Below are positions 45,995 through 59,200 of a stretch of 64,000 nucleotides of DNA, piece after piece. Source of the DNA: a virus; the IMG/VR virus record IMGVR_UViG_3300045282_000084, positions 1 through 64,000 of that record; one strand, given 5' to 3'. Positions within the stretch are counted from its first letter, which is position 1; every line of letters starts with the position of its first letter. A program made the translations under genes and the position numbers. The notes beneath the pieces are model-generated. The model worked only from the letters and a program-made list of their open reading frames with translations, was not told the origin of the DNA and made no database searches.

Positions 45995-46013
45995 CACCCT
46001 GACGAGTGGGCTT

Positions 46014-47549
46014 TTACTCCTCGCCATCCTCCTCGGGATGGTTGAGGAGATCCTCGCGGATGTTCCCGCGCACGGCCTCGACCACATGCCGGTCGATGAC
46101 CATCCCGAGCGTGTCGGGCTGTCGGGTCTCCAGAGCGTCGTTCATCAGCTTGAGCTGGTAGTCCAAGCCGTGGGCGGCGCTTACGAAGTCGTCCGTCGTC
46201 AGGGTGATGGCGTCGGCGTCGCCGTCAACGCGCGGCAGGGCGTACCTGACCGTGCGGTCGATGGCCTCCTTGGCGAAGGCCGGGTGGAAGTCCTTCATCG
46301 CCTCAAACACGACAGCGTAGTCGATGTCCTCGTCCAACATCTCGGCCTGGATCAAGGACTTGACGAGGTCCTCGATGCCGGTTGCGTCGAGCTTGCCGAA
46401 GGGGATGACGGAATCCAGACGACCTGCACGCAGCATCCCCTTGTGGATGCGATCCACGTGGTTGGTCGTCAGCACCACCATGATCTCGGTGCCCTTCGAC
46501 GGAATCCCGTCGAAGATTTCGAGCATCCGGGTGGTTGCGTCAGCCGTCTGGTCTGCCGAGGCCACGGTGTCCATGTCCTCGTAAAAGACCACGCACGGCT
46601 GGTACAGGCGGGCGGTCTGCATGACCTGAACGAGATCGTCCTCGCCGGGCCGTGCCATGATGAACGTCCACCCGTGATTCGTCGCGACCTGGCCGGTGAG
46701 GTAGGCCGCGAGCGTCTTGCCCGTGCCGTAGTCACCTGCGAGCAGCGTTGCCCGCTTGAGCGGCAACCGCAGATCACGATGTTCCTCCGCGAACCGCAGC
46801 GGAGAGAACAGGTTCGCGTCGAGCTGCCGCCAGATGTCCTGGTGGTAGATGACGCGAGCCGGGTCAACTCCCGACAGGTCGATGTAGCCGGGGGTTGCGC
46901 CACCGTCGATGGCCTTGCCCCGGTAGATCGATTCCGTCGCGAGCTTCTCGGCGATCATCTTGAAGATCCCCTGCATCTGGTGCTGGTACTTGCGGGGGCC
47001 ACTAGCTGTCACCGCGAACACGATGCCGTACTTGGGGTCGCGAGCCTCACCGAGACTCAACTCGACACCCGGCAGGAACGGCACCGTGAAGTTCCCCCAC
47101 GGAACCTGTTCCTCCTTTTTCGGGCCAACCGCGATGGTGCGAACCTCGGGCTTGACTTTCATCGGCCCGAAGAACGTCTGCACCGTGCGGCTGTCGTGGC
47201 CGACCGCGCCGAACGCCTCCTTGAGCGCCCGCCACGTGCACCACGCACCGTCCATCGGTCGATAGGGGAACGTCTTGGAGAACTGTGTCTGCTCCTCCAT
47301 CCGCTCCACCGCATCGACAATCGCTCGCGCCGCCTGCATATAGGCCATGCCCTCGGGGATGATGAGCTGATCACCTTCGTGCTTGATCTGCTCATCCGCG
47401 AACGACGAGCCGCCCAACTCACCGAGGAGATCGAGGATGCGCTCCTCGTTCTCCAAGCGGGCGATCTCCGAGGGGTCAAGCTCTCCGCTTGCATCCCCCC
47501 GTGAAACACGGCGAGCCAGTTCGCCGCCTTTGGCCTTGGATGTGGCCAC
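46014..47549 (-). CDS. AAA+ ATPase (classical clade, with SRH)
   Basis: KRATLLAGDYGTGKT, VVFYEDMD, TTNH..RI..GMLRAGRLD; GTG start 7 nt after AGGAG. Confidence 0.88.
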   Translation of the reverse strand: MATSKAKGGELARRVSRGDASGELDPSEIARLENEERILDLLGELGGSSFADEQIKHEGDQLIIPEGMAYMQAARAIVDAVERMEEQTQFSKTFPYRPMDGAWCTWRALKEAFGAVGHDSRTVQTFFGPMKVKPEVRTIAVGPKKEEQVPWGNFTVPFLPGVELSLGEARDPKYGIVFAVTASGPRKYQHQMQGIFKMIAEKLATESIYRGKAIDGGATPGYIDLSGVDPARVIYHQDIWRQLDANLFSPLRFAEEHRDLRLPLKRATLLAGDYGTGKTLAAYLTGQVATNHGWTFIMARPGEDDLVQVMQTARLYQPCVVFYEDMDTVASADQTADATTRMLEIFDGIPSKGTEIMVVLTTNHVDRIHKGMLRAGRLDSVIPFGKLDATGIEDLVKSLIQAEMLDEDIDYAVVFEAMKDFHPAFAKEAIDRTVRYALPRVDGDADAITLTTDDFVSAAHGLDYQLKLMNDALETRQPDTLGMVIDRHVVEAVRGNIREDLLNHPEEDGEE

Positions 47550-47665
47550 TACCACGCTCCTCTCATTGCGCCGCACAACGCGGCATGGTCGAGCGACATG
47601 ACGCCGCTCGTTCGCCCATCGGGGGCGAACTTCGACGGGGTGCTACTGGCTTGCCACCCCTGCGA

Positions 47666-47712
47666 TTGACTACAGTTACTCACACGGGTACCCTAACACG
47701 ACCCATAGAGGG
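47666..47712. promoter_or_regulatory. overlapping divergent promoters
   Basis: + strand TTGACT-17-TACCCT (47666-47694); - strand CCCTCTA-10-TAGGGT (47712-47690). Confidence 0.5.
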
Positions 47713-47842
47713 CAACCGAAACTCCCCAGACTTACAAGAAATGGGGGAAAGTGACGCATCCCATCTCGGTGAACCTATAAACTGTCACGTGTGACCGGTA
47801 CCACAACCCCGACCCAGCGAGCACCATGCCAGGTATGTCGGA

Positions 47843-48328
47843 ATGAGTGATTCTGGGCACGCACAGTTGCATCGGGTACTTGTAACCGGTGACCGAGAGT
47901 GGAGTGACCCACACCCCATTTACGAGGCGCTCGATGAGCTGCGGCGCAAGTACGGGCCGCTGCTGATCATCCAGGGTGATGCCAGGGGAGTGGACACCCA
48001 CGCAAAGCATTGGGCGATCAGCCGACGCGAAGCGTATGCGTCGTTCCCCGCCCAGTGGGATCGGCTCCACAAGGCTGCTGGGCCGATCCGCAACTCGCAG
48101 ATGCTGACCGAGATGCGACCGTCGCTCTGTGTCGCGTTCCACCCGAATCTGGACGAATCGAGGGGAACGGCAGACATGGTAAAGAAGGCTCGGAAGGTGT
48201 GCGAGGTTCTTGTCAATCCACACGTCAGGGAGGACGATGGAGACAGAGCCCCAGGAACAGGGTTACTTCATGAACGAGGAAGACGGCGCGACGAAGTACG
48301 AACTTCCCCGTCTGAAACAGCAACTTGA
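47843..48328 (+). CDS. SLOG-superfamily protein (YspA/DUF2493-like)
   Basis: RVLVTGDREW, IIQGDARGVD..A..WA, PA.W....KAAGPIRN.QML, VAF......RGTADM. Confidence 0.85.
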   Translation: MSDSGHAQLHRVLVTGDREWSDPHPIYEALDELRRKYGPLLIIQGDARGVDTHAKHWAISRREAYASFPAQWDRLHKAAGPIRNSQMLTEMRPSLCVAFHPNLDESRGTADMVKKARKVCEVLVNPHVREDDGDRAPGTGLLHERGRRRDEVRTSPSETAT

Positions 48329-48491
48329 CCAAGTTCGCGGGACGGTCGCCGATCTTTGTCAAGAATGGGATGGAACGAAAATCGAACCAGAAGTATGGCC
48401 GGTTGTTCTAGCTCTATTCGATGCAGTCAAGAAGGTCGAAGATGAAATGACGCGGCTTGGAATCACGCTGCGCTCGGCAGGACTCGGCTGA
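48237..48491 (+). CDS. hypothetical protein
   Basis: GGAGG RBS before ATG 48237. Confidence 0.5.
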   Translation: METEPQEQGYFMNEEDGATKYELPRLKQQLDQVRGTVADLCQEWDGTKIEPEVWPVVLALFDAVKKVEDEMTRLGITLRSAGLG

Positions 48492-48537
48492 CAGTTGTCT
48501 GACACCGCTATCTAAGCGTTGTAGTAAACTGCATGAA

Positions 48538-48760
48538 TCGCACAGTCAACGTGCGAACAGGGGGACAGGGAATCGGTTGGACTGGGTGAAAGCCCCTTTC
48601 GGAGTTCGACCGATGGGGGGGCGAGGTGTTGGTTGACTGGCCAAGCGCGGTTCGACCGCGCAGCACCTCGTCCCCCACCTCCATCGGCTGGGGTCGCGAC
48701 GGGACCCTCCTCCTTCGAGTGGAGTAGCCCAACCCGTTGCGGCCCCGGCCGGTGACCCTG
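48538..48760 (+). ncRNA. candidate structured ncRNA/leader: multi-arm junction
   Basis: Helices 48572-83/48603-14 (12 bp), 48616-31/48661-76 (16 bp), 48682-703/48733-54 (22 bp), closed by 48566-70/48756-60; all non-Watson-Crick pairs are G-U on the + strand; upstream TAAACT -10. Confidence 0.7.
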
Positions 48761-48775
48761 GGATCTTCTAGATCA

Positions 48776-48843
48776 CATCTATGTGGTAAACCTGCTAAAT
48801 CCCATCTATGTGGTAAAATGGGGTCAACCATTTACCGCATGGA
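48776..48843. repeat. two direct and one inverted copy of CATCTATGTGGTAAA
   Basis: Exact copies at 48776-48790 and 48803-48817; inverted variant TTTACCGCATGGA at 48831-48843. Confidence 0.8.
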
Positions 48844-48854
48844 GGGGGTTCTGA

Positions 48855-49784
48855 ATGTCTACGTCCGTCGGGCCGGAGAGTGCGACCGAAAACGTCGGTA
48901 TGTCCCACTACAACTGGCTGTCTGAGGAGATCGAGCGCGAGTTTCGCCGCCCCTTCACGGTCGAAGCGGTGCGGTTCAAGCCGCAGTCGGTCAGCAAGGA
49001 CAAGACCCGAGCCCTAGCGACGTTCTACATCGACGCGCGCCTGGCTGCCGAACGCCTGAACGCCGCCGCTGGAGCCGCCAACTGGGCCGACGAGTATCGG
49101 GTGCTGTTCGAGTCATCACCCACCGCTCACTCCGACAACTTCTTCCCCGTCGAGTGCCGCTTGACCGTCTATCAGGTGACCAAGACCGACGTGGGTATCT
49201 ACCAGAAGGCGACCGCCGACGACAAGGCGGTCAAGTCTGCCTACTCTGACGCCTTCAAGCGGGCGGCGGTCAAGTTCGGCATCGGTGCCTACCTGTACGC
49301 GATCCCCGGCATCTGGGCTCCGGTTGAGGTGGGGGAGAACGGCAAGGTCAAGGGCTTCACCAAGGCGGGCATCGCCCAGCTCAAGCGCGATTACCTGACC
49401 AAGCTCAAGGCGATCGAGGGCCGGTTCGGTACCGCCCTTGACCACGGCGATGTGGGCGATGACCCCGAGGTAGGAGATCAGACCGAGTACGCGCCGCCAC
49501 GGGTGGCCACGATCCCCTACTCGCAGCAGAAGACCGTGTGGGCGAGAGCCAGAGACGTGGGCCTAGTCATGATCGACAAGCCGACCGACGTGGACAAGGA
49601 CAAGCTGGAGACGATCGTGGAGATGGTCACCGGCCACCGCAAGGTGTCTGAGATCGCGGTCACGGACTTCAACCACGTGCTCAAGGTGCTCGACGCCTAC
49701 AAGGAGCGGCCTGCTGACGCCGAGGCCAAGATCCTCGACTTCATCCGAACGAAAGAGAATACTGCGGCTGAAACCGCCTTGTAG
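48855..49784 (+). CDS. Rad52/Sak-family single-strand annealing recombinase
   Basis: YIDARL..ERLN...G..NW..EY, VECRLTV..VTK.DVG, KSAYSDAFKRAAVKFGIG.YLY. Confidence 0.9.
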   Translation: MSTSVGPESATENVGMSHYNWLSEEIEREFRRPFTVEAVRFKPQSVSKDKTRALATFYIDARLAAERLNAAAGAANWADEYRVLFESSPTAHSDNFFPVECRLTVYQVTKTDVGIYQKATADDKAVKSAYSDAFKRAAVKFGIGAYLYAIPGIWAPVEVGENGKVKGFTKAGIAQLKRDYLTKLKAIEGRFGTALDHGDVGDDPEVGDQTEYAPPRVATIPYSQQKTVWARARDVGLVMIDKPTDVDKDKLETIVEMVTGHRKVSEIAVTDFNHVLKVLDAYKERPADAEAKILDFIRTKENTAAETAL

Positions 49785-49793
49785 GAGGGCTGC

Positions 49794-50111
49794 ATGAATG
49801 AGATGAATCGCGGGGAAATGATCCGCCAGCTTGACGACGCATCGAAGGAGGTGCTGCACAGGCTGACCAACGGGCCGTTGGAGGACACAGAGCGTCACGC
49901 CTTGGCCCGGAGCCTGATCAGGCTTCTTCCTGTTGTGGCTGACAGCCTGCAAACTCAAGAGGATCGTCAGGCCGCAGAGAAGCTGATGGAGCACCTTGAG
50001 CGATGGGAGATCGAAGCCAGAGCATCCAAGCAGCTCGCCGAGTCAGAGCAAAGGGATGCCACCGATGCCACCCCGCACCACGTCCAGGTCGATGAGGAGA
50101 AGTGGTTCTGA
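49794..50111 (+). CDS. hypothetical helical protein
   Basis: AGGAGG RBS. Confidence 0.6.
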   Translation: MNEMNRGEMIRQLDDASKEVLHRLTNGPLEDTERHALARSLIRLLPVVADSLQTQEDRQAAEKLMEHLERWEIEARASKQLAESEQRDATDATPHHVQVDEEKWF

Positions 50112-50473
50112 GACGAGCTGACTTCCTCAAGCGCATCGCCGCTGGTGCGGCCATCATCCTCCTGCCGGTGCCGAAGTGGCTACCACGGCTGATCGAGGAG
50201 GAACCGTTCCTCCGGGTCACCTGCTTCGCCCGCATCACCTGCGCTGACGGTTCGGTGCTGGTGTGCCCAGTGGTCGAGCACATCGCTATGGAGCAGGGAG
50301 CCGAGCGCCACTTCGAGCTGGTAGCCACAGATGCGATCAACCCGGTCAAGACCGAGTTCTTCCTCGATGACCGCCAGGTAGGTAGGACCCACGACATTGG
50401 CTTGTCCCCTGGTGGGATCATCCTCGCACCGGGGGACACCCTAAGTCTGACCTGGGTGCTCCACGTCGAGTGA
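50102..50473 (+). CDS. hypothetical protein with a Tat-like N-terminus
   Basis: LRRADFLKRIAAGAAIILLP; AGGAG RBS. Confidence 0.55.
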   Translation: MVLRRADFLKRIAAGAAIILLPVPKWLPRLIEEEPFLRVTCFARITCADGSVLVCPVVEHIAMEQGAERHFELVATDAINPVKTEFFLDDRQVGRTHDIGLSPGGIILAPGDTLSLTWVLHVE

Positions 50474-50847
50474 ACCCCTCCCTTACCCAGCCGGGGTATG
50501 CGATCCGTACTACCAGTCACGCCGCTTCGCGGACTCCTTGAAGGCAAAGTTCGGCTTATGCGTGGGAGAGTCAACCATAGAGCTGAACATGTCCGAGCCT
50601 GCCGCTGACTTCTGCCTATCGCCGTGTTAGGGCGTCCGCCTGCCCGCACTCACATGCGGTGCTCGGCCCCGGTGCCACCGGGAGAGGACGACTCTGGATG
50701 CTGTCACAGGTGAACATGCTGCATTGTCGATGGTAGTCGCCGAACTGATAGAATGCAATCGGACGACTCTCCGGCCTCGCCAGTTGGAGAACATGCTGCG
50801 ATAGAGGCTCGGCCAGGCTGCACTTCCTGACCGGGCCTCTGTCTCTT
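50474..50847 (+). ncRNA. candidate structured non-coding RNA ending in a terminator-like hairpin
   Basis: No credible ORF; hairpins at 50549-50588, 50593-50666, 50668-50682, 50720-50757 and 50803-50840. Confidence 0.45.
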
Positions 50848-50859
50848 AGGTTGACCCGG

Positions 50860-50888
50860 TTGACCTTCTCGGTGTGAGCCTGTAGTAT
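50860..50888 (+). promoter_or_regulatory. sigma-A-like promoter of the replication operon
   Basis: TTGACC-17 nt-TAGTAT. Confidence 0.65.
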
Positions 50889-50903
50889 TGGGCGGTACAC
50901 CGT

Positions 50904-50951
50904 TTCGCGGCCCCCTGGCTCCTCAACCCCCTCCTGTCGGGGGGCCGCGAA
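50904..50951 (+). promoter_or_regulatory. 16-bp leader hairpin with C-rich anti-SD loop
   Basis: TTCGCGGCCCCCTGGC/GTCGGGGGGCCGCGAA; loop TCCTCAACCCCCTCCT. Confidence 0.7.
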
Positions 50952-50972
50952 CTTGATCCGAGGGGGGTCAGA

Positions 50973-51422
50973 GTGTCAGAGCAAGTCGTTCCCCAGGAGA
51001 CCATGCTGCAACGAGTGCCGTGGTCGGGGGAGATCATCGACGTGAGCGACCCTGCCGTCGTGGCCACCGCCCTGTACGAGTTGCGGGAGATGAGGCGGCG
51101 CATGGCTGAGTTTGAGGAAGCCGCGCAGCAGATGCTGCTCGACCAGATGGACACGCGCGGCCAGTGGACGATGCGGTTCGGGGACAGAGAGGTCGAGGGT
51201 TCGACTCCGGGCGACGACTACTACTACGACGTGGAGCAGTTCCGCAAGGTGTTGGAGGCGGGGCTGCCCGAGGACAGGTTCAACGAGATCGTGACCGTAA
51301 AAGTCACGGAGTCCGTGAATCGAACCAAGGCAAAGGCGCTCCTCAAGGTGCCTCAGTACGAGCAAATCGTCAAAGACGCTCGCGTCGATACCGCCAAGCG
51401 GCGACGGGTGATCGTCCGATGA
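50973..51422 (+). CDS. hypothetical protein (recombination/replication-module type)
   Basis: GAGGGG RBS; P.SGEIID N-terminus; coupled to the next gene. Confidence 0.65.
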   Translation: MSEQVVPQETMLQRVPWSGEIIDVSDPAVVATALYELREMRRRMAEFEEAAQQMLLDQMDTRGQWTMRFGDREVEGSTPGDDYYYDVEQFRKVLEAGLPEDRFNEIVTVKVTESVNRTKAKALLKVPQYEQIVKDARVDTAKRRRVIVR

Positions 51423-51751
51423 TCGCCCCCGAATCTGTCGCCGAGGTATGGGTGGCCTACTCGCGCCACCACCCACGATCGGTGCCCAGCGACGAACGCA
51501 TGGCGCTGATCGAGCGCAGGCTCAAAGACCACTCGGTCGAGGACTTGATCGATGCGATCGAGGGCAACCATCTGGACTCTCATTGCAACGGACAAAACGT
51601 GCGACACAGGGAGTACCACGACCTGGGACTGATCCTGCGCAACGCCGATCACATCGAACGGTACGGCGCGATAGCCCGCAACGGGGTGCCCCAGACCACC
51701 GCGCGCAAGGCGTGGGAGACGGCGCAGCAGTTGAGGGCGGTGGGCGAATGA
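51419..51751 (+). CDS. replication-initiator C-terminal-like protein
   Basis: VW..Y......R...I..RL...SVEDL..AI.G.......G.N....Y.DL.LILR...HIE.Y; directly upstream of the helicase-loader-like gene. Confidence 0.55.
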   Translation: MIAPESVAEVWVAYSRHHPRSVPSDERMALIERRLKDHSVEDLIDAIEGNHLDSHCNGQNVRHREYHDLGLILRNADHIERYGAIARNGVPQTTARKAWETAQQLRAVGE

Positions 51752-52500
51752 AGAAGTCAGACGCTTTCGAGTGCGTGACCGCCCTGGTCGCAGCCTGGCC
51801 GACCCCTGACTGGCCAGATGAGACGATCGAGTTGTACGCCAACCGGATTCAGCCCTTCGACCTGGACATAGGTTCGGCTGCGATCATGTCGCTGGTGGAC
51901 GATGGCGGGTCGTACCGCCCCAGCATCGGCCAGGTGCGCGACCGCTGCCTTGAACTCCAACTCGGAGACCTACCCAGCCCCAACATCGCGTGGGCTGAGG
52001 TGATGGAGCAGATGAAGGAGCCGTACCGCCCCGACGATGCGGGCGAGAAGCTCGACCCGCATCCGCCCCTGTTCTCACACGACCTGATCGCCTACGCGGT
52101 CGCCACCTACCCTGGCAGCGTGCAGTCCATCATCGCCGTGGCCGATGGCAAGTCCACCGACTGGTCGATCGGCACGACGTTCAAGGATCACTACGTCGAG
52201 GTCTGCAAGCGGGTCAAGCGCGACGGGTCGCTTCCGGGCGGCATCATGCCCCGTCGCAGGGACGTGAAGGCCGAGATCGCAGCGCACCAACGCACTCAGG
52301 TGGCACCTGCGCCGACGCCATCGATGGCCCTGACCGAAACCATCGGGCCACCTACGGACGCCCCTGACGATGGCGGTGAGTGGGAGTACGACCCGGACAT
52401 CGACCTGAACACCGGCCGTGTGGTGGGCTGGTACCGCAAGGTGCCACCGACACCAGCGTTTCTGGCGATGTGGGAGAAGCTGTCGGAGAAGACGGTGTGA
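51748..52500 (+). CDS. replicative helicase loader/inhibitor (G39P-like)
   Basis: M...A...V..L.AAWP......T...Y...........A...L......RPSIG.V....; P....AWAEV. Confidence 0.65.
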   Translation: MKKSDAFECVTALVAAWPTPDWPDETIELYANRIQPFDLDIGSAAIMSLVDDGGSYRPSIGQVRDRCLELQLGDLPSPNIAWAEVMEQMKEPYRPDDAGEKLDPHPPLFSHDLIAYAVATYPGSVQSIIAVADGKSTDWSIGTTFKDHYVEVCKRVKRDGSLPGGIMPRRRDVKAEIAAHQRTQVAPAPTPSMALTETIGPPTDAPDDGGEWEYDPDIDLNTGRVVGWYRKVPPTPAFLAMWEKLSEKTV

Positions 52501-52724
52501 AGACCTACGCCATGATCGTGGCGGGCACGCTCACGTTCGTCCCCGTCCACTCTCCTGAATATGGGGTGTGGGACTACCCGCTACCGATCAGCCTGGACGA
52601 CCCCTATGTGCTGACCGAGATCGCGGCGGCATGTGAAACCTTCGGAGTGTCAATCTCGCAGGTGAAGGCGGTGTTGGCTCAGGCCGACAAGGATATGGAA
52701 GCTGCTATGAGGAGGGAGGAATGA
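52497..52724 (+). CDS. hypothetical protein
   Basis: GTGA coupling within the operon. Confidence 0.5.
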   Translation: MKTYAMIVAGTLTFVPVHSPEYGVWDYPLPISLDDPYVLTEIAAACETFGVSISQVKAVLAQADKDMEAAMRREE

Positions 52725-52915
52725 TGTTGTGCACCTGCATGAGCGGTAGGAAGCCCTGCGGCGTCAAAGGCACACAGTTGATCAGGATCGAGACTCAGAT
52801 TCGTGAGGGCTACGCGGTGCACTCGGAGCGAGTGATGTGCGATGAGCACGCAGAACAGACTCTAGAAGGAAGCCGCCGATCGGGCAGCAAAATCTCTGCG
52901 CAGGCAATCGTATGA
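52721..52915 (+). CDS. small Cys/His protein
   Basis: C.C......C...MCDEHA; strong RBS; ATGA coupling. Confidence 0.55.
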   Translation: MMLCTCMSGRKPCGVKGTQLIRIETQIREGYAVHSERVMCDEHAEQTLEGSRRSGSKISAQAIV

Positions 52916-53145
52916 AGGGCAAAGGTGAGAACGAACTGCATGACGGCGAGCCGTATTTCAGGATCAGAGCGCAAGATGCACTCGCTCCACTTGCGGTCGA
53001 AGCATGGGCAAGTTTCTGCGAACTAGCAGCCACAGCGACCGGGGTTGACAATCTCTATAGACAAGCGCGCGAAGCTCGGGAGATCGCAGAGGATATGAGA
53101 AAGTGGCAGACCAACAACCCTGAGAAGACAAAATGGCCTGACTGA
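52912..53145 (+). CDS. conserved phage hypothetical protein
   Basis: EPYFRIRAQDALAP..V..WA...K.PD pattern. Confidence 0.65.
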   Translation: MKGKGENELHDGEPYFRIRAQDALAPLAVEAWASFCELAATATGVDNLYRQAREAREIAEDMRKWQTNNPEKTKWPD

Positions 53146-53774
53146 TGGCCTTCATCGATCTTGACATGACATTCCGGCCGATCGACAAGTGGCCGAGCAA
53201 GTTGACCCCCGATTGGGAGCGTCGTCGTGCGCCCTTCAAGGCCAAATGGATGGACACCGTGGGTCTGTTGGAGCGTGAGCTACGCATGCTCGACGCCGAG
53301 CACACTGTCGTGCAGGTGGCCCTGGATGAGTCACAGATAAGACTCGATGGACGGCCGCGTGCTGCCGCAGTAGCCTCCCATCCGGGGGTCATCATCGCTT
53401 TCGATTCCAAGCACGGTCCCTTGCAGTACAGCACCGACAAGTACGAGAGCTGGCAAGAGAACATCAGGGCTATCGCCCTGGCGCTTGAGTCGCTGCGTCG
53501 AGTCGATCGCTACGGCGTCTCGAAGCAAGGTGAGCAGTACAAGGGCTGGCGTCAGTTGACACAGACCACCGGCCCCCACTTTGCGGGCAAGGGTGAGGCG
53601 GCTGAGTGGCTGGCGGACATCATCGGCTACTACGACGCAAGCGACATCCTCGACTTCGATGATCGGGCGCGTGACGCATATATCTCTGCGGCCAAGAAGC
53701 TGCACCCTGATGCTGGTGGATCTGAGGGTGAGTTTCGCAAGCTGGTGTTGGCGAAGGAGGTGCTCGGCGTATGA
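53145..53774 (+). CDS. phage protein with C-terminal J-domain (HPD)
   Basis: HPGV...F......D.Y..WQ.N.RAIAL.LE.LR.VDRYGV...EQY.GW; AY..AAKKLHPDAGGS...F. Confidence 0.75.
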   Translation: MAFIDLDMTFRPIDKWPSKLTPDWERRRAPFKAKWMDTVGLLERELRMLDAEHTVVQVALDESQIRLDGRPRAAAVASHPGVIIAFDSKHGPLQYSTDKYESWQENIRAIALALESLRRVDRYGVSKQGEQYKGWRQLTQTTGPHFAGKGEAAEWLADIIGYYDASDILDFDDRARDAYISAAKKLHPDAGGSEGEFRKLVLAKEVLGV

Positions 53775-54621: not shown

Positions 54622-54912
54622 ATGCACTCCTACCACGCGAGAACAGACCCGAGCATTGATCCCATGTACTTCGACGGCTGCGCCGAGTGTCTCCACCACG
54701 CGCAGAGGCCAGAGGTGTACCTGGACACCGAGCGCTTGGCGGCCATGTGGGACGAGATGGTGCGCGTTGAGCGAGATTACAGCGAGAGCTATCGCTCCGT
54801 CGCCGATGGCGTTGCGGGCCGAAACCTCTATCGGTTCGCGGTGTTCATGGAGCGGATCGGGATCAACCCATGGCAACCGTTGGGGGAGATGGTAGTACGG
54901 CCACCGTTCTAG
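54622..54912 (+). CDS. hypothetical protein (CxxC)
   Basis: AAAGGGG RBS; DGCAEC. Confidence 0.6.
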   Translation: MHSYHARTDPSIDPMYFDGCAECLHHAQRPEVYLDTERLAAMWDEMVRVERDYSESYRSVADGVAGRNLYRFAVFMERIGINPWQPLGEMVVRPPF

Positions 54913-57754: not shown

Positions 57755-57768
57755 CGTTCCTATGCAGA

Positions 57769-57791
57769 CCCTCTACCGTAGGTGATATTGT
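57769..57791 (+). promoter_or_regulatory. phage promoter CCCTCTA-N10-TATTGT
   Basis: Lies immediately after the terminator; shared motif. Confidence 0.65.
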
Positions 57792-57825
57792 GTACGCACA
57801 TGGTAGTCAACCGAAAGGGTGGAAG

Positions 57826-59165: not shown

Positions 59166-59200
59166 GGGGGGCCGGTGTCGCGTCGGATCACCGGCCCCCC
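59166..59200. terminator. hairpin between convergent genes (bidirectional terminator)
   Basis: GGGGGGCCGGTG / CACCGGCCCCCC, 12-bp inverted repeat. Confidence 0.7.

Follow-up and report, generated by a model that had tools for sequence, protein, structure and literature searches.

In a soil phage, a stable RNA hairpin with an unpaired, C-rich loop lies between a consensus-matching promoter and the ribosome-binding site (RBS) of a gene for a 149-aa protein, and part of the loop is the exact reverse complement of the RBS of a Rad52/Erf-like gene located 2 kb upstream. We found that this 10-nt match is within chance expectation in this genome. The explanation that we tentatively favor, at slightly less than even probability, is that the hairpin is a cis-acting leader element on its own mRNA and that its match to the Rad52 gene is a by-product. 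The window that we analyzed covers the first 64 kb of an orphan phage genome from soil (79 kb; GC content, 62%), and the host group of the phage is probably actinobacterial. The features around the hairpin, including the Shine-Dalgarno (SD) sequence of the gene that follows it, are these:

50804 to 50847, + strand: terminator-like hairpin (14-bp stem with one mismatch, 8-nt loop, tail UGUCUCUU)
50860 to 50888, + strand: sigma-70-type promoter, TTGACC-17-TAGTAT, a consensus match
50904 to 50951, + strand: leader hairpin, 16-bp stem and 16-nt loop (loop at 50920 to 50935)
50925 to 50934, + strand: loop 10-mer AACCCCCTCC, complementary to the Rad52 SD
50960 to 50967, + strand: SD GAGGGGGG of the 149-aa gene, beginning 8 nt after the stem
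50973 to 51422, + strand: 149-aa gene, GTG start, function not assigned

The promoter was the sole sigma-70-type site found within 47500 to 52000, and its −10 element (50883 to 50888) suggests a transcription start near 50895, which would place the beginning of the hairpin about 8 nt past the start. Since the hairpin sits between this promoter and the RBS of the 149-aa gene, we read it as part of a 5′ leader. Backing for the GTG start at 50973 comes from a 68%-identical homologue (P0002, encoded on a 2,602-bp contig) with the same MSEQVV N terminus. The 50804 to 50847 stem, which was read from the sequence and is present in the predicted fold, was not reported by the terminator scan; it probably ends the Rad52 operon transcript. 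The sequences and coordinates given in an earlier, sequence-only reading of this DNA were all correct on re-reading. Its description of the transcript that carries the hairpin as a replication operon found no support, as the genes downstream of the hairpin are without replication domains.

Folding bore out the 16-bp hairpin and unpaired C-rich loop that had been described. The + strand stem consists of 12 perfect base pairs and 4 more, 2 of which are G·U pairs, and the folding energy of the hairpin RNA is −34.2 kcal/mol for the + strand versus −28.3 kcal/mol for the − strand. The loop (UCCUCAACCCCCUCCU) is G-free, with 10 C, 4 U, and 2 A (pyrimidines at 14 of 16 positions); its predicted probability of being unpaired was 1.00 in each context folded, and its opening cost was zero. 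Pyrimidine-rich 16-mers are rare in the genome (27 clusters in 79 kb). We rejected the absence of G as a signal because the genome contains at least 40 G-free runs of 16 nt or longer. The hairpin does not have the combination of GC-rich stem and U-tract at a gene end that marks an intrinsic terminator; the sequence 3′ of its stem (ACUUGAUCC) is without a U-tract, and the terminator scan gave no call there. A cmscan search of 46000 to 53000 against 4227 Rfam families yielded no matches at E values up to 1. A second tail-less hairpin, with a perfect 12-bp G6/C6 stem and an 11-nt loop, is found at 59166 to 59200, exactly between convergent genes.

The proposed target of the loop is the start region of the Rad52/Erf-like gene:

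48811 to 48819, + strand: candidate extended −10 element TGGTAAAAT of a proximal Rad52 promoter, as read from the sequence
48841 to 48850, + strand: Rad52 SD region GGAGGGGGTT, exactly complementary to the loop 10-mer and separated by 4 nt from the ATG at 48855
48855 to 49784, + strand: gene for a Rad52/Erf-like single-strand annealing protein (309 aa; Pfam PF04098, E = 8e-13; phrog_1097, E = 8e-23)

The exact reverse complementarity claimed for these two sites was confirmed. The duplex contains 10 contiguous Watson-Crick pairs, 8 of them G-C, and the 10-mer and its complement occur once each in the window. When the loop was checked against the phage RBSs, as had been proposed, the Rad52 site was the top predicted partner among 105 start regions (−21.5 kcal/mol; mean, −10.5; standard deviation, 3.7; z about −3). 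The second-best partner, at −18.0 kcal/mol over 7 bp, was the loop's own downstream SD, to which CCCCCTC (50927 to 50933) is complementary. These two matches are not independent, because the Rad52 and 149-aa gene start regions are alike in 15 of 18 nt, in register; GAGGGGG is present in the RBSs of just these two genes. With a Rad52 mRNA start near 48826, which we infer from the sequence, the net energy is −13 to −15.5 kcal/mol and Rad52 is still top-ranked. If the Rad52 leader is long instead, the SD is sequestered in the predicted fold at an opening cost of 12 to 15 kcal/mol, and the site falls outside the top 12 loop targets. The candidate −10 element lies within three copies, two direct and one inverted, of a ATGTGGTAAA-type repeat.

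Antisense matches of at least 10 nt to an RBS window arose in 7.2% of trials with shuffled loops and in 11.5% when CCTCC was held fixed. On the + strand of about 10 kb of intergenic DNA, we counted 8 anti-RBS 10-nt events versus 4.84 ± 2.32 in dinucleotide shuffles (the probability of at least 8 is 0.12, and that of at least 1 is 0.99). With one mismatch allowed, the 10-mer had 6 matches versus 4.3 expected, and the 78-nt leader has about nine further antisense matches of at least 10 nt elsewhere in the genome. Shuffled loops matched Rad52 specifically over 10 nt with a probability of 0.006, but Rad52 had not been named as the target in advance, and the value should be read accordingly. A complement of at least 7 nt to the loop's own SD occurred in 19% of loop shuffles, and the cis match thus also falls short of significance. 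The shuffle and intergenic rates uphold the caveat, raised with the original observation, that G-rich RBSs favor coincidental matches.

Three other CCTCC tracts had been noted, two of them in or beside unpaired parts of one noncoding RNA and the third at the start of a second:

48676 to 48684, + strand: CACCTCCAT tract, within a structured region upstream of the Rad52 gene
48704 to 48715, + strand: ACCCTCCTCCTT tract, about half paired in the predicted fold
50473 to 50482, + strand: AACCCCTCCC tract, overlapping the TGA stop (50471 to 50473) of a 123-aa gene

All three are at the positions given, and ACCUC at 48677 to 48681 is predicted to form an unpaired linker at a junction, but 48707 to 48713 is predicted to be mostly paired, and the 50473 to 50482 tract has a probability of being unpaired of 0.34 and pairs with the SD at 50960 to 50967 in long-context folds. 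GACCCTCCTC (48703 to 48712) is antisense to the RBS of a gene starting at 69227, in the same genome but past the end of the window. The two noncoding regions flanking the Rad52 operon contain 4 anti-RBS 10-mers where 0.61 would be expected, an enrichment with P about 0.005 in a post hoc comparison. Minus-strand open reading frames in these two noncoding regions were rejected as genes, with GC3 values of 0.61 to 0.68 versus 0.73 to 0.85 in real genes.

Searches of phages with the region from 48400 to 51200 (megablast and blastn) found no relatives, the sole exception being a 69-nt match in Rad52 coding sequence to a Thermus phage. By tblastn, the Rad52 gene had two distant matches only, and the 149-aa and 350-aa proteins had none. 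Neither the Rad52 protein nor the 149-aa protein nor homologue P0002 retrieved a related locus from viral contigs (IMG/VR), and genome contigs yielded no relatives. We dismissed two metagenome-contig loci as relatives, both being low-GC glycosyltransferase genes, and one other record that has the AAA ATPase alone in common and lacks both the Rad52 and 149-aa genes. A stem-pattern scan of viral contigs returned 110 unrelated GC-rich hairpins, none of them beside homologues of local genes. The 149-aa protein family has 229 members. Using a 5-sequence alignment, as a 42-sequence alignment was too diverse for scanning, we found four distant IMG/VR loci of this family (27 to 32% identity), which have coding sequence directly upstream and no leader hairpin and which are silent on pairing with Rad52 in trans. 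In contigs from three other soil runs that span the loop or the RBS, we saw no difference from this phage, and loop/RBS covariation thus has no variation to draw on. No RNA run was among the listed sequencing runs that contain this DNA.

Bacterial mRNAs can carry 5′-terminal stabilizer stem-loops, as in the ompA leader, and the loops of these are usually small. The phage element is like them in being a very stable hairpin less than about 10 nt from the putative 5′ end and before the RBS, while its loop is larger. In the cis-acting explanation that we favor, the promoter at 50860 to 50888 would drive an operon starting with the 149-aa gene and having the hairpin in its 5′ leader, and the preceding Rad52 operon would end at the 50804 to 50847 hairpin. 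Lying about 8 nt from the putative 5′ end, the very stable stem would protect the message, and the C-rich loop, 25 nt from a complementary SD (CCCCCUC versus GAGGGGG), may affect how ribosomes load on the first gene. We read the exact Rad52 complementarity as a by-product because a loop of C-rich composition will match G-rich SDs and because the Rad52 start region near-copies the hairpin's own start region. The stronger + strand stem, the accessible loop, the rank of its own SD as second-best duplex, and the spacing of promoter, hairpin, and SD are consistent with this explanation. Several observations argue against it. In a canonical H-type pseudoknot, an 8-nt linker would have to span the 16-bp stem, which is sterically marginal by our own geometric estimate; the 16-nt loop exceeds what a simple stabilizer or terminator would be expected to have, a hint of a recognition role; the post hoc enrichment of flanking anti-RBS 10-mers suits a broader antisense role better; and the four distant 149-aa homologues are without a leader hairpin.

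Of the other explanations, the one that survives best, although we consider it unlikely, is that the loop acts in trans by pairing with GGAGGGGGUU of the Rad52 mRNA and blocking 30S binding. The carrier would be the operon leader or a short processed or attenuated hairpin RNA of about 60 nt, and the annealing protein would be shut off once the next operon is transcribed, as in a phage analogue of actinobacterial 6C RNA. [quoted passage not shown] The phage hairpin is like 6C/B11 sRNA (RF01066) in its unpaired C-rich loop, for which pairing with two G-rich RBSs is predicted (−21.5 and −18.0 kcal/mol), and in its probable high-GC Gram-positive setting, and the panD RBS closely resembles GGAGGGGG and GAGGGGGG of this phage. 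In contrast to 6C, a free-standing sRNA with multiple hairpins, at least two of them with conserved C-rich loops, the phage element is a single, phage-encoded hairpin inside an mRNA leader and gives no match to the Rfam model. The top rank of the Rad52 duplex among the 105 start regions, which is kept if the Rad52 mRNA starts near 48826, the predicted full accessibility of the loop, the low frequency of Rad52-specific matches in shuffles, the chaperone-independent precedent on G-rich RBSs (PMC6486639), and the enrichment of anti-RBS 10-mers in both flanking noncoding regions all point to pairing in trans. However, Rad52 was not chosen beforehand, the chance of a match to any RBS is 7 to 12%, and such matches are expected genome-wide; moreover, the Rad52 and own-SD matches are not independent, a long Rad52 leader would sequester the SD and take the site out of the top 12, and no U-tract follows the stem to suggest a separate small RNA.

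Other known systems share parts of this arrangement. In the icaR mRNA of Staphylococcus aureus, a UCCCC-type motif in the 3′ untranslated region pairs with the distant SD in the 5′ untranslated region and initiation is blocked (PMC3868564). The phage loop is likewise a C-rich motif in an untranslated region with predicted pairing to a distant SD; unlike the icaR sites, which are on one mRNA, the phage sites are separated by a terminator-like hairpin and a promoter, so any loop/Rad52 pairing would be mostly intermolecular. Like the Cuckoo, CcsR, and alpha-r14 RNAs of Alphaproteobacteria (CCUCCUCCC loops), the phage hairpin has a CCUCC loop mimicking the 16S rRNA anti-SD, but those are tandem-hairpin, multicopy sRNA families of another phylum, whereas the phage hairpin is single copy and has no Rfam match. 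The c4 antisense RNA of phages P1 and P7 (RF01695) comes from its operon's own leader, pairs with an RBS-containing region, and controls downstream translation. The element described here differs from c4 in its structure and lack of an Rfam match, and its proposed target is upstream in another operon. A combination of cis and trans action, in which the leader hairpin of an early operon would be a built-in, 6C-like antisense regulator of both GAGGGGG-type RBSs, each belonging to the first gene of one of two neighboring operons, that of Rad52 in trans and that of its own gene in cis, such that transcription of the second operon turns the recombinase down, is in our estimate rather unlikely.

It is quite improbable that the hairpin is a tail-less (I-shaped) terminator or attenuator that halts transcription, or makes it pause, at the boundary between the operons, with the loop sequence being irrelevant. 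The stem is very stable, and the perfect hairpin without a U-tract between convergent genes at 59166 to 59200 indicates that tail-less hairpins at gene ends occur in this phage, but the leader hairpin is 3′ of a promoter and 5′ of an RBS rather than at the end of a gene, the hairpin with a U-rich tail 60 nt upstream (50804 to 50847) is a better terminator candidate, and a 16-nt loop is unusually large for this role. Very unlikely is a loop that serves as a platform for a phage or host RNA-binding protein or for a set of host G-rich RNAs or RBSs, or an inverted repeat that is a DNA-level protein site: the large, G-free, pyrimidine-rich loop, of a kind rare in the genome, suggests a recognition surface and one regulator could act on both of the similar start regions, but the G·U extensions favor RNA over DNA and operators do not typically have their perfect arms 24 bp apart.

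The main lesson of this case is that a high-GC phage whose RBSs are G-rich readily yields exact 10-nt anti-RBS matches, and the chance rates obtained here can be used to calibrate other anti-RBS findings of the same type. If the loop does act on Rad52 in trans, it would be a phage case of the chaperone-independent C-rich-loop mechanism known from 6C RNA, with a regulator built into an mRNA leader and coupling two early operons, and it would be relevant to phage gene timing and to Rad52/Erf-type recombineering proteins. If the hairpin is antisense to both RBSs, it would be one case of a wider, undescribed phage habit of anti-Shine-Dalgarno hairpins.

We found that the leader hairpin at 50904-50951 lies between a promoter and the Shine-Dalgarno (SD) sequence of a 149-aa gene, starting about 8 nt past the inferred transcription start and ending 8 nt ahead of the SD. 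This position makes it part of the 5' leader of the transcription unit that follows.

Features of the Rad52 operon and the leader hairpin
48765-90 and 48792-817: direct ATGTGGTAAA-type copies, 27 nt apart
48811-19: candidate extended -10 TGGTAAAAT, upstream of the Rad52 gene
48828-40: inverted ATGTGGTAAA-type copy CCATTTACCGCAT
48841-50: SD GGAGGGGGTT, 4 nt upstream of the ATG of the Rad52 gene
48855-49784, + strand: Rad52/Erf-like annealing protein gene, 309 aa, with PF04098 and phrog_1097 matches
49794-50111 and 50102-50473: two small genes 3' of the Rad52 gene
50804-39, with tail to 50847: terminator-like hairpin, 14-bp stem with one C.A mismatch, 8-nt loop, tail UGUCUCUU
50860-88: sigma-70-type promoter TTGACC-17-TAGTAT, the only one found in 4.5 kb
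50904-50951, + strand: leader hairpin, loop 50920-50935
50925-34: loop 10-mer AACCCCCTCC, exact reverse complement of GGAGGGGGTT
50960-67: SD GAGGGGGG of the 149-aa gene
50973-51422: 149-aa gene, GTG start at 50973

The small genes are followed by a 500-nt stretch without credible coding, in which minus-strand ORFs were rejected as genes for lacking the GC3 signature of real ones. The terminator-like hairpin (50804-50847), which was read from the sequence, is present as a stem in the fold and was missed by a consensus scan, closes this stretch just 5' of the promoter at 50860. The transcription unit that the hairpin leads had been called a replication operon, a label that finds no support, as its proteins match no replication family. 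The GTG start of the 149-aa gene is supported by a 68%-identical homologue (P0002, 149 aa) with the same MSEQVV N terminus; the protein as given in the record (P0001, 139 aa) begins 10 codons later. P0002, encoded on a 2.6-kb JGI contig, is the only close homologue in a protein family with 229 members in metagenomes, for which we found no known function or Pfam domain.

The stem of the leader hairpin has 16 pairs, consisting of a perfect 12-bp core (TTCGCGGCCCCC/GGGGGCCGCGAA) and 4 more, 2 of them G.U. Because of these wobbles, folding is stronger for RNA from the + strand (-34.2 kcal/mol) than from the - strand (-28.3 kcal/mol), which points to an RNA transcribed from the + strand. The 16-nt loop, UCCUCAACCCCCUCCU, is G-free and predicted to be wholly unpaired in all contexts tested, with an opening cost of zero. 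An Rfam search gave no match, the hairpin is absent in four distant IMG/VR members of the 149-aa protein family, and a scan for its stem pattern returned unrelated hairpins only. One and the same hairpin, GCGGCCCCC-CAACCCTCACAAGGGGAAG-GGGGGCCGC or its complement, is carried by many unrelated IMG/VR contigs (more than ten loci); it is a recurrent element conserved in a different group of phages.

The sequence-only reading had proposed that this loop silences Rad52 translation from 2 kb away. Its sequences and coordinates were all correct on re-reading, and GGAGGGGGTT and AACCCCCTCC each occur once in the window. When duplex energies were computed for the loop with each of the 105 gene starts (mean, -10.5 kcal/mol; standard deviation, 3.7), the Rad52 ribosome binding site (RBS) ranked first, as that reading would have it (-21.5 kcal/mol, 10 contiguous pairs), followed by the hairpin's own RBS, that of the 149-aa gene (-18.0 kcal/mol, 7 pairs). 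These two matches are not independent, since the two start regions, GAGGGGGTTCTGAATGTC and GAGGGGGGTCAGAGTGTC, are identical at 15 of 18 positions in the same register; genome-wide, only these two genes have GAGGGGG in the RBS.

The chance rates for a 10-nt match are high. An antisense match of at least 10 nt to some RBS window arose in 7.2% of trials with shuffled loops, in 11.5% with the CCTCC core held fixed, and for 4.7% of the natural C-rich 16-mers of the genome. Shuffles of the loop composition matched the own SD over 7 nt in 19% of cases and Rad52 specifically over 10 nt in 0.6%, a target that was not chosen beforehand. Intergenic + strand sequence (about 10 kb) holds 8 such events versus 4.84 ± 2.32 in dinucleotide shuffles, 99% of which contain at least one. 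Elsewhere in the genome, about nine further sites are antisense to the 78-nt leader over 10 to 12 nt. Leaning the other way, 4 of the 8 events (0.61 expected; P ~0.005) fall in the non-coding regions on either side of the Rad52 operon, as do 18 matches counted as 8-mers (10.1 expected; P = 0.015), both post hoc tests because the regions were picked for having such tracts. In the structured region upstream of Rad52, GCCCCTTTCGG (48592-48602) is antisense over 11 nt to CCGAAAGGGGC, the RBS of a gene at 54622. In the predicted folds, the other CCTCC tracts listed in the sequence-only reading are unpaired in part only.

How accessible the Rad52 SD is varies with the start site of its mRNA. The upstream region 48538-48760 (folded as 48520-48870) is predicted to form a multi-arm structure far more stable than shuffled sequence (-182 kcal/mol; z = -7.55; equalled by 0 of 100 shuffles). 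It has no Rfam match and could be either an RNA of its own or a long, structured leader. In an mRNA with the long leader (48520 onward), the SD is predicted to pair with an upstream complement (unpaired probability, 0.13; opening, 12 to 15 kcal/mol) and falls outside the twelve best loop targets. With a start near 48826, which the extended -10 at 48811-19 suggests, opening would take 6 to 8 kcal/mol, and the net energy of -13 to -15.5 kcal/mol would be the best in the genome. The three ATGTGGTAAA-type copies around this -10 (region 48776-48840) resemble a set of operators, and the inverted repeat among them is also predicted to fold back and sequester the SD in read-through RNA.

At least seven genes share a conserved promoter and leader of another kind (57760-57825 in the window; 71190-77115 in the genome), with the layout CCCTCT, ~11 nt, TAnnnT, ~10 nt, and (G)GTCAG-TCAACC-ACC-GAAAGGG directly before the start codon, suggesting a class of phage-specific promoters in which leader and SD are fixed. 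The core of GCCCCTTTCGG matches the conserved CCGAAAGGG leader of this class. Exactly between convergent genes, a hairpin at 59166-59200 has a perfect 12-bp G6/C6 stem, a loop of 11 nt and no U-tract on either strand, and is a candidate tail-less bidirectional terminator.

The virus record (79,346 bp, 61.8% GC; the window is its first 64 kb) carries about 105 genes, nearly all on the + strand, and comes from soil metagenomes, with essentially identical sequence in four studies. Across 48300-51300, contigs of three further soil studies show at most one difference over the covered parts, and none at the loop (contig X3) or the Rad52 RBS (X2 and X4); this makes it a widespread phage with almost no variation. 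We found no close relative in phage, IMG/VR, or prokaryote-genome collections. The host is probably an actinobacterium, since a 209-aa protein (53145-53774), the best host clue, is 41 to 50% identical to proteins of Gordonia, Microbacterium, and Mycobacterium phages, annotated as "DnaJ-like chaperonin" in 88 matching records.

We regard the hairpin as a genuine RNA element of the leader, outside the 6C, cuckoo, and c4 families, which it resembles in principle only. Silencing of Rad52 in trans is plausible but unlikely; a direct precedent for the mechanism is 6C RNA, where binding of C-rich loops to the panD RBS, AGGGGGG, takes place with no chaperone (PMC6486639), and a second is the UTR pairing of icaR (PMC3868564). 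That the hairpin is a tail-less attenuator seems less likely again, and we give little credence to another binding partner of the loop. We rank first, tentatively, a role in cis, in which the hairpin would shield the 5' end of its own mRNA and its loop might modulate its own RBS, although by our estimate a canonical pseudoknot with that SD is sterically marginal, with 8 nt to span 16 bp. Under this cis role, the Rad52 match would follow from the loop being C-rich and the two SDs being G-rich and nearly identical.
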